From IMG/VR virus record IMGVR_UViG_3300042341_001047: a stretch of DNA of 64,000 nucleotides. One strand, given 5' to 3'. Positions 1 to 63,284 of this stretch are shown here, piece after piece; position 1 is the stretch's first letter; every line of letters starts with the position of its first letter. Made by a program: the position numbers and the translations under genes. The DNA is from a virus. Below the pieces are notes generated by a model. It did no database searches and was not told the origin of the DNA. It saw only the letters and a list, made by a program, of their open reading frames with translations.

Positions 1-244
1 CCCAAGTAAGTTTCTAACAAAAGAAAGATTTGAACTAGTTAAAGATTACTACAAAGTAAGAATGGAGAAGGATGAAATTCTAAGATATAAAAATGTAAAC
101 CAATGGATTAACCCTAAAGGTTGGAGTGTGTATGATATCTTAGATGAAGTTACTTTGAAAAAGATTAAAGAAGTTTACAAAAAATACTACAACTTTGATA
201 ACTTTTATATTTCTAATGATAAGAAAGAATTTAAAATTAAATAA
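1..244 (+). CDS. hypothetical protein (possibly 5'-truncated)
   Basis: ORF track 62..244; may extend beyond the window start. Confidence 0.4.
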   Translation, partial: PSKFLTKERFELVKDYYKVRMEKDEILRYKNVNQWINPKGWSVYDILDEVTLKKIKEVYKKYYNFDNFYISNDKKEFKIK

Positions 245-2601: not shown

Positions 2602-3191
2602 TAGTAGTTAGTTTTTACCCAATCAACCAATTTAAGTAAGTTCTCAGTATTGTGAGGATATTTATTTAAAATAGATTCTAAGAATTTTAATCTACCTTCT
2701 TTATATAACTCACCATAAGCTTTAAATTCTTCATGTATTCCGTTCTCCCACTCTAATAGTTGATCGAAATCTCTTTCAACAATACTCATATCATAGTGAT
2801 TAAATGACTCAGAAAGGTTTGTTGTAGCTTGGTGAGTCTTCGTATCTAAAATCATCTGTCTTACTTCTAAGACATCTTTATTTGACTTATCTGAACAACA
2901 TTCCATAAAGAAATCTGCTGATTTTTCTTCGTTATCACTTTTCATCGGATCATAAACACAATCGTGAAAAAGAGCAGTTAACATTAACTTCTCATATTCT
3001 TTATCTGAGTATTTTGATTTACTTTCATTGATTTGGTCAATCACATCATTTAAGTGATTTAATGTATGGTAAGATCTATGAGATTCATTCCACATTGAAA
3101 GTAATGTATTAACATCACATTTAATATTCCATTTGTTAAGTAATTCTTGTAAGTTCATATTTTTATTTATTTTTATAAAATTCAACTCCAA
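2601..3191 (-). CDS. HD-domain phosphohydrolase (likely start 3158)
   Basis: RSYHTLNH, ALFHDCVYDP, DNEEKSA, ILDTKTH. Confidence 0.8.
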   Translation of the reverse strand: MELNFIKINKNMNLQELLNKWNIKCDVNTLLSMWNESHRSYHTLNHLNDVIDQINESKSKYSDKEYEKLMLTALFHDCVYDPMKSDNEEKSADFFMECCSDKSNKDVLEVRQMILDTKTHQATTNLSESFNHYDMSIVERDFDQLLEWENGIHEEFKAYGELYKEGRLKFLESILNKYPHNTENLLKLVDWVKTNY

Positions 3192-3525
3192 ATTTATTTG
3201 AAATTTGTTCAGCTTTTTCTAAATTTTTTTCTTCAACAAAAAACACCCATTTGAATCCAGGATATTTATCATTTATTTCAAAGATATTATGATTATTTAT
3301 AATATTACCAGTATTATCTACAAATTTAGGTGGAGTGGAGAATCCTTGATTCCACATAAGATTGTCCATTTCTTTTCTAATATTCTCTTTTGTTCTAACA
3401 CTAGTTTTAATAAAGTCCATAATAACAGAAGGATATACGATTTTTTCAATACCCCTACTATTAGTAAACGTAATAGGACTTATCAAAAAACCATCTAAAT
3501 TTTCATTAAATCTTTTAATTTTCAT
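3163..3525 (-). CDS. putative head-targeted protein (MKIKRFNE leader)
   Basis: N-terminal leader motif; TAATATATA on minus strand at 3530-3538. Confidence 0.6.
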   Translation of the reverse strand: MKIKRFNENLDGFLISPITFTNSRGIEKIVYPSVIMDFIKTSVRTKENIRKEMDNLMWNQGFSTPPKFVDNTGNIINNHNIFEINDKYPGFKWVFFVEEKNLEKAEQISNKFGVEFYKNK

Positions 3526-3528
3526 AAA

Positions 3529-3750
3529 CTATATATTAAATATAGATTTGATTCTTTCTTTTCTTATTCTAACTCTTTCATATTTAGAGTGAAGACTATG
3601 CCATTCCATTAAAGAAGCATTAATACTTGACTTACCAGTTTGTCTAGACTTCAACATAATCATATTTTTACCACTAAGTAATTGGCCAAAGACATCAAGA
3701 GTTTCTTTATTATCCATAAATTCTTTTAATTTTTTCTTTTCGTCTTTCAA
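3529..3750 (-). CDS. tagged mini-protein carrying a terminase Walker A fragment
   Basis: MIMLKSRQTGKS plus C-terminal RKERIKSIF. Confidence 0.7.
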   Translation of the reverse strand: MKDEKKKLKEFMDNKETLDVFGQLLSGKNMIMLKSRQTGKSSINASLMEWHSLHSKYERVRIRKERIKSIFNI

Positions 3751-3892
3751 TTTTATCTCTATACTTACGAGAATTAGACATTATTGTATAAATTTCTTTA
3801 CTAAATTTTTCTAAAATATTATTTTGATATTTAGATTTACTCTGATTTATCATACCAATATGATCCAATACAATAATATCTCTTTTAATCAT
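3710..3892 (-). CDS. tagged mini-protein carrying an SF4 helicase Walker B-like fragment
   Basis: DIIVLDHIGMI plus C-terminal RKEKIKRIY. Confidence 0.6.
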   Translation of the reverse strand: MIKRDIIVLDHIGMINQSKSKYQNNILEKFSKEIYTIMSNSRKYRDKIERRKEKIKRIYG

Positions 3893-4124
3893 TTAATAGT
3901 TGGTCAATCTTATTATTTCTTTTTTCCGCTTTTTCTTTAGCCAAACGGATAGCCTTTCGTTCTTCAGATTCTTCTGTTAAATTTGTTGAGTTATAATAAA
4001 CTCCAAGTTGGTCTATTAAGTCCTCATAGTTACTATATTTAGATTCAGATTTATCTAAACCATAAACCATATAATCACCATATTTAGTACCACCAAATAT
4101 GTCTTTGTAATATTCTTCTTTCAT
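3885..4124 (-). CDS. tagged hypothetical protein
   Basis: C-terminal RNNKIDQLL. Confidence 0.65.
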   Translation of the reverse strand: MKEEYYKDIFGGTKYGDYMVYGLDKSESKYSNYEDLIDQLGVYYNSTNLTEESEERKAIRLAKEKAEKRNNKIDQLLND

Positions 4125-4459
4125 TCTAATATATTTTTAATTTTCCAATCTCTTACATTTTCATAAAAATCAATAAAACTATTCATTCTATGATTCTGAA
4201 TATTTTTGAATGATTCTATTTTATTAATAATATCATCAATCAATTCTTTTTCTTCAATTAATTGAGAACCATCTGAACCAGGATATCCTAACCAGATTTT
4301 AGGCTCCTTGTTCTTCCTACCATCTAAACAAATTTCAATTTCATCACTATTTAAATGATGGTCTGATAAGTATTTAGACCATTGTGGTCCACCTAAATTA
4401 CATCTTAGAGAGATAGTTCCCCCGTCTCTATATGAGTCAAAACTTTTTATATTAAGCAT
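4121..4459 (-). CDS. tagged hypothetical protein
   Basis: C-terminal RDWKIKNIL. Confidence 0.65.
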   Translation of the reverse strand: MLNIKSFDSYRDGGTISLRCNLGGPQWSKYLSDHHLNSDEIEICLDGRKNKEPKIWLGYPGSDGSQLIEEKELIDDIINKIESFKNIQNHRMNSFIDFYENVRDWKIKNILE

Positions 4460-4460
4460 T

Positions 4461-5195
4461 TTAAATGTTTTTTAAATCATTTTTGATTTTTTCCATACCG
4501 GTTGATGCCAATTCTTGGTAATGAGTAAATAAGTGTGTTCTATATTCTGGTATATAAAAATCAACATCTGATAAATCTACATAATAAATAGAAGCACTTT
4601 CTTTGGTTAAGAATGGAATTGTGTTAGCAGGTGATACTTTCATTGAAGTTCCAACAACAATACAAACATCACATTCTTTAGCAGCAGTCGTAGCCATATC
4701 AACAAAATTTGGATCTAGATTTTCACCAAACCAAACAATATGAGGTCTTAATTGAGAACCAGTTGTTGGACATTTATCACCAATTTTAATTGGATTATAT
4801 CCTATATCAATAACGGCATCTAATGGTGATGTTTTATGATCATACATACAACCTCTAGCCTTTGTTAACTCACCATGTAAGTGAATTACATTAGTTGAAC
4901 CAGATCTTTCGTGTAAATCATCGACATTTTGAGTCACAACGGTAACATCATAGTCTTTTTCTAATTCAGCAATTATTTTATGTGCCAAATTTGGTTCAAC
5001 TTCATTCATTTGAGCACGTCTCATATTGTAGAAATTAAGAACTTTTTCTCTATCTCTACGCCACCCATCAGGGGTAGCAACATCTTCTATTCTGTGATTA
5101 TACCAAAGCCCATCGTCTCCAGTTCTGAATGTAGCAACACCACTTTCAGCTGAAACTCCCGCTCCAGTAAAAATCAATACTTTTTTCTTTTCCAT
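4461..5195 (-). CDS. cobB: Sir2/CobB NAD-dependent deacylase
   Basis: TGAGVSAESGVATFR, TQNVDDLHERSG, HLHGE, RPHIVWFGE, VGTS. Confidence 0.93.
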   Translation of the reverse strand: MEKKKVLIFTGAGVSAESGVATFRTGDDGLWYNHRIEDVATPDGWRRDREKVLNFYNMRRAQMNEVEPNLAHKIIAELEKDYDVTVVTQNVDDLHERSGSTNVIHLHGELTKARGCMYDHKTSPLDAVIDIGYNPIKIGDKCPTTGSQLRPHIVWFGENLDPNFVDMATTAAKECDVCIVVGTSMKVSPANTIPFLTKESASIYYVDLSDVDFYIPEYRTHLFTHYQELASTGMEKIKNDLKNI

Positions 5196-5250
5196 AATAT
5201 TTTACAAATTTAATTAATTAAAGTTTAATATCAAAGAAACTCTTAATAAA

Positions 5251-20661: not shown

Positions 20662-20907
20662 TCACCAGATTTGTGGGAAGTTAGTTGGTCCTTTTGGAGT
20701 AGAAGTTATAATAACATTAGGAACATCTATTCCAAATATTTTACCTATTTTTATTTTTCTTAAATATCTTTTAGAATATTCAACACCTGATGTATCTTTT
20801 TCAATGAAGTGAATACCTGGTCTCACATATCTACCTATTCTGTTCATTTGATTTCTTCTTTTTACTTCTTCTTGTTTTCTTGTGAGTTTTAGATGATTCA
20901 GCTCCAT
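20662..20907 (-). CDS. tagged mini-protein carrying a terminase coupling-motif fragment
   Basis: RKIKIGKIFG followed by VIITSTPKGPTNFPQIW. Confidence 0.65.
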   Translation of the reverse strand: MELNHLKLTRKQEEVKRRNQMNRIGRYVRPGIHFIEKDTSGVEYSKRYLRKIKIGKIFGIDVPNVIITSTPKGPTNFPQIW

Positions 20908-21328
20908 ATTTATAATCTAAATAGAATAAAGTACCTGATGGAGCAGACATTGGAGTTACTCCTTTTTTCATCAACTCTTTATATTCTTCATCATCTTCTA
21001 ACTTCTTTTCAGTAAATTCACCACCTTCAATAACAGCTTCAATTTTACCATCACGATTTTCAGAATTTACTCTACTTTTTACATCATCAATTTCTTCTTT
21101 TGATGCGAATCCTATTATTTCATTGGACATTAATTTTGATGATACTTTCATAGCCATTGGTAGTAAACTTGGAAACTCTTCAGTTTTAGTTTCTTCTAAT
21201 ATTTGATTTGATTGATTTTCGGCTAACTGAGCTAAATTGTCTAATTGAGATCCAGTCATACCCATAGACCCTAAGATAGGAGCCCATTTTTTCATTAATT
21301 CTTCTTTATTTGGTTGTTTCATAAACAA
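20831..21328 (-). CDS. tagged fragment of T4-type major capsid protein (N-terminal part)
   Basis: LMKKWAPIL, AENQ, LLPMAMKV, GVTPMSAPSGTLFYLDYKYG; internal RDGKIEAVI. Confidence 0.7.
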   Translation of the reverse strand: MFMKQPNKEELMKKWAPILGSMGMTGSQLDNLAQLAENQSNQILEETKTEEFPSLLPMAMKVSSKLMSNEIIGFASKEEIDDVKSRVNSENRDGKIEAVIEGGEFTEKKLEDDEEYKELMKKGVTPMSAPSGTLFYLDYKYGAESSKTHKKTRRSKKKKSNEQNR

Positions 21329-51696: not shown

Positions 51697-52409
51697 GTTT
51701 TAATATAGTTTGATAAGTTCTCCCAAAGTATTTTATAAATATCATCAAATTGATTATACCTAATTCTAATTGAATCAATATAATTATCTTCACAATAATC
51801 TTTTTTTATTTTATCTACTTCTTTAATTAAATAATGTTCTTTACTTAAATACTCAATTGTAGTTCTTCTATTAGGTAAATAAAATTGAAATATATTATTA
51901 TCTAAGTTTTTATTTTCATCATATTCAATTTGATACTTATCTAAAAACTCTTTAATATCATTTATTCCTTCTTTATCACAATTATTGATCTTATCTCTTA
52001 ATAGACTTTCCTCGTTATTTCTAAATTCAGGAGCAAGGCCTAGTAAGTGTGAGCTAGACCTTTGTTCGTAAACAATACCATTATAAATTATCTTAATATT
52101 ATTAAGAGCACCAGTATATTCAGTTAAAGAGTAATCATATTTGTCTTTCCAAATATTTTTGGCTTCTAAAATAAAATCTTCAGTTGTCTTTCTTTTAATA
52201 GACTTCTCAGGACATCTACCCATCAAATGTTTAGAGATGGATTGAGTATAAATCTCACCATTATATTCAATTTCTATTCTATCATTTAAGGTAACCTTAT
52301 CTGATAAATTTAAATAATTGTATTTATAACCGTGTGTATTTCTAGCTTTTTCTAAAAATTCTAACCTTTTCATATAGTATATATAAAAATCTTTACCTCC
52401 TTTCAACAT
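51681..52409 (-). CDS. degenerate homing-endonuclease-like protein (DUF723-like repeats plus Vsr/PD-(D/E)xK-like C-terminus; likely start at MKRLEF)
   Basis: FLEKARNTHGYKYNY, TTEDFILEAK..W.DKYDYSLTEY, FYLP...IEY...HY...DKIKKDYC...IRIRY. Confidence 0.7.
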   Translation of the reverse strand: MLKGGKDFYIYYMKRLEFLEKARNTHGYKYNYLNLSDKVTLNDRIEIEYNGEIYTQSISKHLMGRCPEKSIKRKTTEDFILEAKNIWKDKYDYSLTEYTGALNNIKIIYNGIVYEQRSSSHLLGLAPEFRNNEESLLRDKINNCDKEGINDIKEFLDKYQIEYDENKNLDNNIFQFYLPNRRTTIEYLSKEHYLIKEVDKIKKDYCEDNYIDSIRIRYNQFDDIYKILWENLSNYIKTKKTS

Positions 52410-52477
52410 TTTTTTAATTTTTCTTGAAAGAGGGAGTAAGTTTCTTAATATATAAAGTATAAAAATAATTAATTAAA

Positions 52478-53716
52478 ATGGCAAAACAATCAGGTAAAGA
52501 AGTAAAAAGATTCGAATTTAGTAAGGTAGGAACTATATTAGATAATATAGCAAAATCAACTCCAATTTTAATCGAAAAAGAACTGAAAGAAAGAAATTAT
52601 ATTTCAACTGGAAATTATCTTTTAGATGCGGCTCTTTCTGCAAAATTAGTAGGAGGTGGTATTTTAGGAGGTAGAATATTCGGACTTTTAGGAGAATCTG
52701 GTGCAGGTAAGTCATTTATCGCTTACTCTATATGTAAATCAGCTCAAAGAAAGCAAGATTATAGTGTGATATACATTGATACTGAGAACTCAATAGATAT
52801 CGAAGGTATAGCTAAAATGGGCATTGATAACTCACCAGAAAAATTCAGATTAATTAGATCTAATAAAGTTGAAGATATAAATATTACATTAACACAACTA
52901 TTAGATGAATTAAAAAATCAAAAAATGGCAGGATATGAAATTCCAAAGATTCTAATAGTATTAGACTCTATTGGTATGATGTCTTCTAACAAAGAAAAAG
53001 CGGATTTACTAAAAGGTGATATGAAACAAGATATGACTAGAGCTAAACAATTAAATGCTCTTTTTAGAAGTATTAGTTCTGATCTTGGATATTTAGATAT
53101 CCCCATGGTATGCTGCAACCATACATACTTGACACAAGATTTATTTCCAAGAGAAATAAGTAAGGGTGGTATGGGTCTAGTTTATTCAGCTTCAGTTTTA
53201 GGTTTTCTATCTAAATCAAAATTGAAAACAGGAGATGAGGATGATATGGACTTAGGCCAATCAGGTATCTCGGTTCTTTTCAAAACTCAAAAGAACCGTT
53301 TAGCCAAACCTAAGAAAATTAGATTTGATATCTCTTTTCTAAATGGTTTAAATCCTTACACTGGATTAGATGCTTTCTGTCGTCCAGAATATTTTGAACA
53401 AATTGGTATCGCTAAAGGTAAAATGGATGTTGATAAGAAAACAGGCGAAATGACTTTCATCCCAGGTGGTATCAGATGGTATGTTAATCACTTAAATAAA
53501 TCAGTTACAACAAAACAATTATTTTCATCTGAGATATTTACTCAAGAAGTTCTTGAAAAAATGGCACCAATTGTAAATGATTATTTCAGATTTAGATCAT
53601 TGGATGAAATTGAAGATGTTGAAAAACAATTTAATAGTGTAATCGGAGAAGATGAAGACGAAGATGAATCAAATGGATTCACAGATGCCGCTGACGCAGA
53701 TGATATCTTTGGATAA
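52478..53716 (+). CDS. uvsX: UvsX/RecA-like recombinase
   Basis: ISTGNYLLD, GESGAGKS, YIDTE, VLDSIG, DMTRAK, NHTY. Confidence 0.92.
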   Translation: MAKQSGKEVKRFEFSKVGTILDNIAKSTPILIEKELKERNYISTGNYLLDAALSAKLVGGGILGGRIFGLLGESGAGKSFIAYSICKSAQRKQDYSVIYIDTENSIDIEGIAKMGIDNSPEKFRLIRSNKVEDINITLTQLLDELKNQKMAGYEIPKILIVLDSIGMMSSNKEKADLLKGDMKQDMTRAKQLNALFRSISSDLGYLDIPMVCCNHTYLTQDLFPREISKGGMGLVYSASVLGFLSKSKLKTGDEDDMDLGQSGISVLFKTQKNRLAKPKKIRFDISFLNGLNPYTGLDAFCRPEYFEQIGIAKGKMDVDKKTGEMTFIPGGIRWYVNHLNKSVTTKQLFSSEIFTQEVLEKMAPIVNDYFRFRSLDEIEDVEKQFNSVIGEDEDEDESNGFTDAADADDIFG

Positions 53717-63016: not shown

Positions 63017-63045
63017 AAAATCCCACTTAATAAGTGGGATTTTTT
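63017..63045. terminator. bidirectional intrinsic terminator
   Basis: aaaatcccactta-a-taagtgggattttt. Confidence 0.8.
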
Positions 63046-63284
63046 ATTTCTATAGTTCCGTAAAAGTTATTATTTATAATCTTTTTAGAGTATCTACTCA
63101 TAATTGATTTACTTGGTGAGAATTCATCTTTAACATCTAAACCTAAACCAAATATCTTATTAATCTTTCTTTTTCTACTTACATTCTTAGAAGTATATCC
63201 AGATATAACAGAAGTGGTTGTCAATGGAATATAAGGAGCAAAAACATAACCTTGTTCTAAATTACTTTTCTTTCCTATTATCAT
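63027..63284 (-). CDS. tagged fragment of T4-type major capsid protein (C-terminal part)
   Basis: GYVFAPYIPL...[RKRKINKIFG]...FSPSKSIMSRYSK...FYGTI. Confidence 0.72.
   Translation of the reverse strand: MIIGKKSNLEQGYVFAPYIPLTTTSVISGYTSKNVSRKRKINKIFGLGLDVKDEFSPSKSIMSRYSKKIINNNFYGTIEIKNPTY

Follow-up and report, generated by a model that had tools for sequence, protein, structure and literature searches.

A conserved, tagged mini-protein of huge T4-like phages that may carry a diverged piece of the large terminase

The window, meaning the whole 64,000-nt stretch of viral DNA that was analysed, has a G+C content of 28% and is part of a 175,660-bp viral contig, whose nearest public relatives are LR745206 and LR756502, uncultivated phage genomes of 634 kb and 642 kb. 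Position 1 of the contig corresponds to window position 210; window positions 1-209 lie outside the contig, yet sequence and an open frame are present there. An alternative genetic code was considered and rejected: translation table 11 already yields dense, long ORFs, so that recoding is not needed. The gene under study lies in a string of same-strand genes, several of which end in a common short motif (the "tag"), and the locus contains the following features (window coordinates):

4461..5195, minus strand: sir2-family gene (Pfam SIR2, E=5.5e-47), heading the same-strand gene string
4121..4459, minus strand: tagged 112-aa gene, C-terminal RDWKIKNILE (ORF list and tag scan)
3885..4124, minus strand: tagged 79-aa gene, C-terminal RNNKIDQLLND (ORF list and tag scan)
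3710..3892, minus strand: upstream tagged 60-aa gene, C-terminal RKEKIKRIYG (ORF list and tag scan)
3718..3750, minus strand: in-frame extension of the mini-protein frame up to a TTG, overlapping the 3' end of the upstream 60-aa gene
3529..3717, minus strand: mini-protein coding sequence, 62 aa (ATG at 3717-3715, stop TAG at 3529-3531)
3592..3708, minus strand: segment resembling the large terminase (TerL), residues 4-42 (BLASTP and hhalign against the phage's own TerL)
3628..3648, minus strand: SRQTGKS, terminase-type Walker A, residues 24-30 (read from the sequence)
3532..3603, minus strand: predicted amphipathic basic helix, W39-I62 (AF2 confidence and invariant residues)
3538..3564, minus strand: tag RKERIKSIF, residues 52-60, fitting R-x-x-[KR]-[IL]-x-x-[ILV]-[FLY]
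3529..3540, minus strand: motif TTTAATATATAG, which coincides with codons F60-N61-I62 plus the stop and is separated by 3 nt from the ATG (3525) of the following gene
3163..3525, minus strand: downstream 120-aa gene with no function assigned, preceded by the start-associated motif

Ten nucleotides upstream of the sir2 start, at window 5205-5235 (minus strand), we observed TTTG-N19-TAAATTTG, which fits the Bacteroidota promoter consensus; the general pattern TTTG-N17-21-TAnnTTTG is not enriched in the window (7 occurrences against 4 expected).

The original prediction had described a protein of 73 aa at 3529-3750. This TTG-initiated frame exists on the minus strand, but the ATG at 3717 is the likelier start and gives 62 aa, and the stretch from 3718 to 3750 is probably an over-extension that is not translated. 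This ATG and the stop of the upstream 60-aa gene overlap in ATGGATAA, most homologues begin at the equivalent position, and gene callers predict proteins of 62-63 aa at the conserved syntenic place in related contigs. Homologues in related huge T4-like phages form about 70 sequence clusters of 45-74 aa. A word-indexed search returned 31 homologue clusters (46-76 aa, 59-100% identity), and an exhaustive profile search returned 42 representatives at E<=1e-3 that span 30-108 aa, almost all of them 30-74 aa, once two repeat proteins outside this range are set aside as false matches. A tblastn search of the mini-protein against 50,697 phage records gave no match. The gene order is kept in relatives, running from sir2 through small genes to the mini-protein gene and then to a 186-aa gene. 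At the syntenic position of LR756502 (L002:3596-3748, minus strand) lies a tagged 50-aa gene that ends in RRINKIKKILG and has no recognisable P-loop, so that the terminase-like motif can vanish while the gene and its tag persist.

Frame, length, start and stop are retained in homologues down to 30% identity. In the close family, K23, R25, Q26, G28, K29, S30, W39, K45, E47 and R48 are invariant, as are R52, K53, I56, K57, F60, N61 and I62 in the C-terminal part. Among the nine loci for which DNA was available, the codon for Ser30 switches between TCA, AGT and TCT, and the codons at a basic position of the tag switch between CGT, CGA, CGG and AGA, which indicates that selection acts on the protein. 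Pairwise dN/dS values are mostly 0.3-0.65; the L006 lineage gives values >1 against both the mini-protein gene and a near-identical copy of that gene. Altogether, this comparative evidence establishes the mini-protein as a conserved and, by every sequence indication, translated 62-aa gene product of huge T4-like phages.

The true TerL of this phage is a 709-aa protein encoded at contig 137181-139310 (minus strand), 135 kb away from the mini-protein gene. It matches Pfam Terminase_6N and the solved T4-type gp17 (E=4e-22), and its closest cultured relatives infect Tenacibaculum. The original prediction had likened the loop of the mini-protein to the Walker A region of such large terminases, and several independent methods bear this out, if modestly. 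The mini-protein carries the S/A-R-Q-x-G-K-S/T form of Walker A after a hydrophobic strand, and the core pattern RQxGK[ST] occurs only twice in the 422 ORFs of the contig (65,888 residues; 0.038 expected from composition), once in the true TerL (SRQVGKT) and once in the mini-protein (SRQTGKS). BLASTP aligned residues 15-53 of the 73-aa form with TerL 96-130 (E=0.001; 36% identity over 39 residues), placing KETLDVF...SRQTGKS on KEMLDNF...SRQVGKT, and this part of TerL maps onto the solved gp17 (2o0h) around SRQLGKT. What the two proteins share runs from the helix that follows the adenine-binding motif through strand beta1 and Walker A into the beginning of helix alpha1. Using hhalign, the family profile was aligned in the correct register with TerL alone (P=5e-5) and with an alignment of 60 TerL sequences (P=1e-4).

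Searches in the opposite direction also led to TerL. When the family HMM was run over the 422 ORFs with no filters, TerL was the only match outside the tagged proteins (E=1e-4, through the N-terminal part of the HMM), and no further P-loop protein of the contig was matched. We also searched four complete relative genomes of 630-735 kb in six frames with the family profile: the Walker A region of TerL was matched in LR745206, LR756502 and LR756504 (E=0.002-0.003) and was the only match in the latter two, so that the profile picks TerL in four of five genomes, the contig included. Among the 38,880 PHROGs families, the only recurrent matches were four TerL families, with 11 of the 35 family members matching phrog_2 and the non-terminase matches being singletons, and every Pfam-named neighbour in the ESM-Atlas comes from a TerL ATPase family. 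The PHROGs, family HMM and ESM-Atlas results point to a terminase-type rather than a generic P-loop. The profile match that was called for does exist and is weak: Pfam reported nothing on the mini-protein, which stays below the gathering threshold of Terminase_6N (PF03237), and a terminase in only 1 of the 35 family members (E=0.036), and a PDB profile search listed T7 terminase alone (E=1.5). The mini-protein and TerL genes share 59% of their nucleotides where they align and use different Arg and Gln codons, which indicates that the copy is old; a recent duplication of, or gene conversion from, TerL was rejected on these grounds. We conclude, with modest strength, that a diverged piece of terminase is the best reading of the N-terminal segment, with descent from a helicase or from a generic ASCE protein as a live rival.

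A separate observation concerns the TerL loci of the related viral contigs L076, L080, L082 and L083. Before TerL ...TISSSIF... their reading frame is unrelated, and its last two residues, HN, stand immediately in front of Thr, a pattern that, as far as sequence can tell, marks an intein inserted into the Walker A of the terminase (between SRQVGK and T).

As had been predicted, the mini-protein has neither a Walker B motif nor a nuclease domain; it also lacks motif III and stops 32 residues after Walker A. With these elements missing, no ATPase activity would be possible, and the mini-protein is predicted to be unable to hydrolyse ATP or to package DNA. It is not one part of a split gene either: a frameshifted terminase in the flanks was rejected, since tblastn with TerL found nothing near 2-6 kb. 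As for the upstream 60-aa gene, its frame is a different one, it is variable among relatives, its match to TerL is only at E=1, and it resembles P-loop proteins weakly (E=0.066). The mini-protein does not have the adenine-binding Y-Q: YQKEMLDNF of TerL corresponds to NKETLDVF, in which K, D and F are retained and N-K replaces Y-Q. In the wider family, which includes forms of 45-50 aa that lack the N-terminal helix and consist of a strand, the P-loop, a helix and a basic tail, K23 and G28 are invariant and R25 and S30 nearly so, and roughly one member in four has A, M, S, R or Y in place of the Walker lysine. The combination of a conserved Walker A lysine and a Walker B acidic residue that marks P-loop NTPases is thus absent. 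Using the family alignment, AF2 predicted one long helix, confident only from residue 31 (pLDDT 84-95 over residues 31-60, about 60 over the TerL-like half), and no strand-loop-helix. Considering the loss of Y-Q, the variable Walker lysine and the single predicted helix, a functional nucleotide-binding site is unlikely.

The tag that had been noticed at the C-terminal end turned out to be real and strongly enriched. Its motif is found in 22 of the 211 likely genes, compared to 1.3 (maximum 5) in shuffled proteins, and it falls within the last 16 residues in 16 genes, compared to 0.07 in shuffles; in some tagged proteins it is internal rather than C-terminal. The three genes directly upstream of the mini-protein gene are likewise tagged, and the C-terminal part of the family HMM matches other small tagged ORFs. 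Homology of the mini-protein's tag to helix alpha2 of TerL (DKIKSIY) was considered and not adopted: a global hhalign alignment pairs the two at low posterior confidence, and TerL is not selected by an HMM made from the tags of the other tagged genes. We also considered the tag as a clamp-binding tail, which is unsupported: several large proteins instead end in acidic EFEF/DDIFG tails. These acidic-aromatic tails (DDIFG, GGEFEF, EFEFIF, NFEFDN; contig 52269-53507, 123380-125095, 68026-69684 and 33130-34083) are distinct from the basic tag and reminiscent of SSB- or clamp-type docking tails. Another protein, of 190 aa and with no Pfam family (contig 94001-94573; L089:14002-14574, plus strand), contains a hydrophobic stretch and four repeats that weakly resemble the tag (EKLNKVLG, GRIKQLLG, SKIMQIFG, YKINDIV).

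The end of the mini-protein gene coincides with a DNA motif. TTTAATATATAG has 16 sites in the window compared to 3.6 expected, and 43 of the 45 genome sites of TTAATATATA (often TTTAATATATA[AG]) lie 0-52 nt upstream of a same-strand start, with spacings that cluster at 5-6 nt and 20-27 nt. This motif resembles a promoter or a translation-initiation signal of the phage; many large genes have it in front of them, whereas the capsid and terminase genes do not. At the end of the mini-protein gene, its nucleotides are invariant in 9 of 9 homologous loci. Since the last three codons and the stop coincide with this start-associated motif, "FNI" may be constrained at the DNA level by a regulatory signal, while the remaining tag varies synonymously. 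The motif was found upstream of only 1 of 22 tagged genes, compared to 52 of 189 others, and the idea that tag, stop and start motif travel as one mobile cassette was rejected, as the combination is unique to the mini-protein gene.

Several other tagged proteins have bodies that resemble parts of core phage proteins or of P-loop proteins:

contig 102988-103203 (L090:2989-3204), minus strand: tagged, 71 aa, Pfam Gp23 E=4e-10, above threshold, profile positions 132-185
contig 110230-110979 (L090:10231-10980), minus strand: tagged, 249 aa, Pfam Gp23 E=1.2e-3, profile positions 174-301
window 63027-63284, minus strand: tagged, 85 aa, Pfam Gp23 E=6.5e-4, profile positions 306-354
window 20831-21328, minus strand: tagged, 165 aa, Pfam Gp23 E=9e-4, profile positions 26-58
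window 20662-20907, minus strand: ORF of 81 aa with internal tag RKIKIGKIF, then VIITSTPKGPTNF
contig 90941-91459 (L089:10942-11460), minus strand: tagged, 172 aa, AAA_22 E=2e-4, the phage's 442-aa protein E=4e-4
contig 98389-98922 (L089:18390-18923), minus strand: tagged, 177 aa, looks like a small or degenerate P-loop domain

The four Gp23-like proteins cover different, largely non-overlapping segments of the major capsid protein profile, and VIITSTPKGPTNF of the 81-aa ORF (IITSTP.G) resembles motif III of TerL, IIITSTPNGMNLF (BLASTP E=0.023). The tagged 172-aa protein appears to be a small or degenerate AAA_22-like P-loop domain. Like other members of this set, the mini-protein is small, has its tag near the C-terminus and has a body that resembles a core-protein fragment. 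The likenesses to TerL, Gp23 and motif III in proteins with the same tag argue that a core-protein fragment joined to a common tag is a real, repeated design in this phage genome, of which the mini-protein appears to be the terminase Walker A member.

The reading that we tentatively favour, as possible rather than probable, is that the mini-protein acts by binding, as a molecular mimic or competitor of the conserved TerL segment: it would belong to a genome-wide set of tagged fragments of core proteins and act as a decoy or antagonist, and the tag helix would provide a common docking or assembly function. It would most likely target a factor by which conserved stretches of phage core proteins are read, for example a host sensor, a protease or a chaperone. 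A wider proposal, which we consider doubtful, is that the phage encodes a library of about 20 such mini-proteins, each joining one common helix to a short, conserved piece of the phage's own core machinery (terminase, major capsid protein, others), as decoys or antagonists of a host pattern-recognition immunity that reads core proteins. The original prediction had suggested a possible minimal decoy of terminase-sensing Avs proteins (Avs1-3). Sensors of the Avs type are reported to be directed against capsid, terminase, portal and helicase-type proteins and to recognise the folds of these targets (PMC13581612). The TerL element that is copied here is buried in the TerL fold rather than exposed on its surface, and a 40-residue piece of a buried core would not reproduce a fold, so that the target could equally plausibly be a protease, a chaperone or a sensor that reads linear or nascent segments. 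Mimicry is also less easily reconciled with the AF2 model, in which the predicted single long helix leaves the TerL-like half at low confidence, and with the replacement of the Walker lysine in about a quarter of the wider family.

The same fragment could instead act on the terminase itself, and we regard as rather doubtful that it is a dominant-negative or regulatory "microProtein" that captures folding intermediates or subunits of TerL, either of the phage's own TerL, with an effect on packaging timing, or of that of a co-infecting relative or satellite in a competition between them. The residues retained are terminase-specific (R-Q before G-K-S) and the best match within the genome is the phage's own TerL; fragments of a buried core could pair only with an unfolded or nascent parent protein, and the likewise tagged capsid fragments point to a common strategy directed at assembly proteins. 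However, the phage would run a risk of poisoning itself, and the beta1/P-loop/alpha1 element is, to our knowledge of the gp17 structure, not a known subunit interface.

The assignment to terminase has to be weighed against an unlikely but live alternative, in which the P-loop half does not come from terminase and was derived from, or converged on, another ASCE ATPase, such as the phage's SF2 (ResIII/DinG-like) helicase, and the TerL likeness reflects a shared ancestral pattern of Q-motif helix, beta1, P-loop and alpha1. In LR756501, the most distant genome, the family profile indeed finds its best match not in TerL but in the P-loop region of an SF2 helicase (P=6e-5), and the invariant W39 aligns with a Trp of the helicase family where TerL has His; the lack of a terminase match in Pfam fits as well. 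However, the phage's own helicase matches the family profile at P=0.12 only, compared to 5e-5 for TerL, and the SF2 motif I (A-x-T-G-x-G-K-S/T with an upstream Q motif) is not what the mini-protein has, since its loop is one residue shorter than that of the helicases and contains the R-Q that they lack. The exclusively terminase matches among recurrent PHROGs families and named Atlas neighbours, and the selection of TerL in four of five genomes, also argue for a terminase origin.

It is quite improbable that the mini-protein is a stand-alone beta-(P-loop)-alpha protein that binds phosphate ligands or nucleic acids as an oligomer, with help from its basic tail. The reduction of the wider family to a strand, P-loop, helix and basic tail in 45-50 aa would suit such a function, and oligomers of engineered 40-residue prototypes, of which it would be a natural counterpart, bind ssDNA, NTPs and polyphosphate (bioRxiv 10.1101/2020.07.30.228619), but the Walker lysine is not conserved in the wider family, AF2 shows no strand, and the other tagged mini-proteins are not P-loops, so that the set would be left unexplained. 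Lastly, it is scarcely credible that the locus is a decaying relic, or does not code for protein, and is preserved only through DNA-level signals, among them the start-associated motif at the 3' end: the last 12 nt do form a recurrent, regulatory-looking and nucleotide-invariant motif and LR756502 has a 50-aa gene here with no clear P-loop, but homologues with as little as 30% identity still have the frame, length, start and stop, the invariant residues include some far away from the motif and are accompanied by synonymous serine and arginine codon switches, and dN/dS is mostly below 0.65.

Our literature searches found no described family of such mini-proteins, and we know of none of this kind. 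Two aspects are new even with no function assigned: a conserved natural mini-protein that would consist of the strand, P-loop and helix element of a terminase on its own, and a short tag common to fragments of unrelated parent proteins. If mimicry is what these proteins do, huge phages would counter the recognition of core proteins that they cannot change with a battery of tagged peptide copies instead of one inhibitor per defence system, a counter-strategy so far undescribed. The tag itself is a simple handle with which to find the whole set in metagenomes.

Among the closest known systems is the N-terminal ATPase subdomain of T4 gp17-type TerL (PDB 2o0h; Terminase_6N), with which the mini-protein shares, in collinear order, the helix, beta1, SRQxGK[ST] and the start of alpha1. 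However, it represents only about 40 of roughly 700 residues, it has no Y-Q, Walker B, catalytic Glu, motif III or nuclease, it stays below the Pfam threshold, and its AF2 model is helical. Vyas et al. (bioRxiv 10.1101/2020.07.30.228619) designed beta-(P-loop)-alpha peptides with a canonical P-loop and showed that they bind ligands. These prototypes share with the mini-protein a length of 40-60 aa, a lone strand/P-loop/helix element and a basic character, but in part of the mini-protein family the Walker lysine is dispensable.

The microProteins, a eukaryotic concept, are small proteins that are derived from larger ones, keep an interaction domain and act by sequestration. Like them, the mini-protein is small, non-catalytic and a piece of a larger functional protein; unlike in microProteins, the piece kept here is an element of a buried catalytic core, and it is joined to a tag common to fragments of unrelated parents. 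Abortive-infection systems are known to read linear phage peptides, as Lit does with the Gol segment of T4 gp23 and PrrC with Stp. These are likewise short conserved segments of phage proteins that are active alone, which recalls the capsid fragments with the same tag in this genome. However, Gol and Stp are triggers seen by the host and not separately encoded, tagged genes, and we know of no Gol/Lit- or Stp/PrrC-like host system for this phage. Further counterparts of the mini-protein are the other tagged mini-proteins, such as the product of the 71-aa Gp23-fragment gene, which have the same tag, a small size and a body that resembles a core-protein fragment, but from another parent than TerL.
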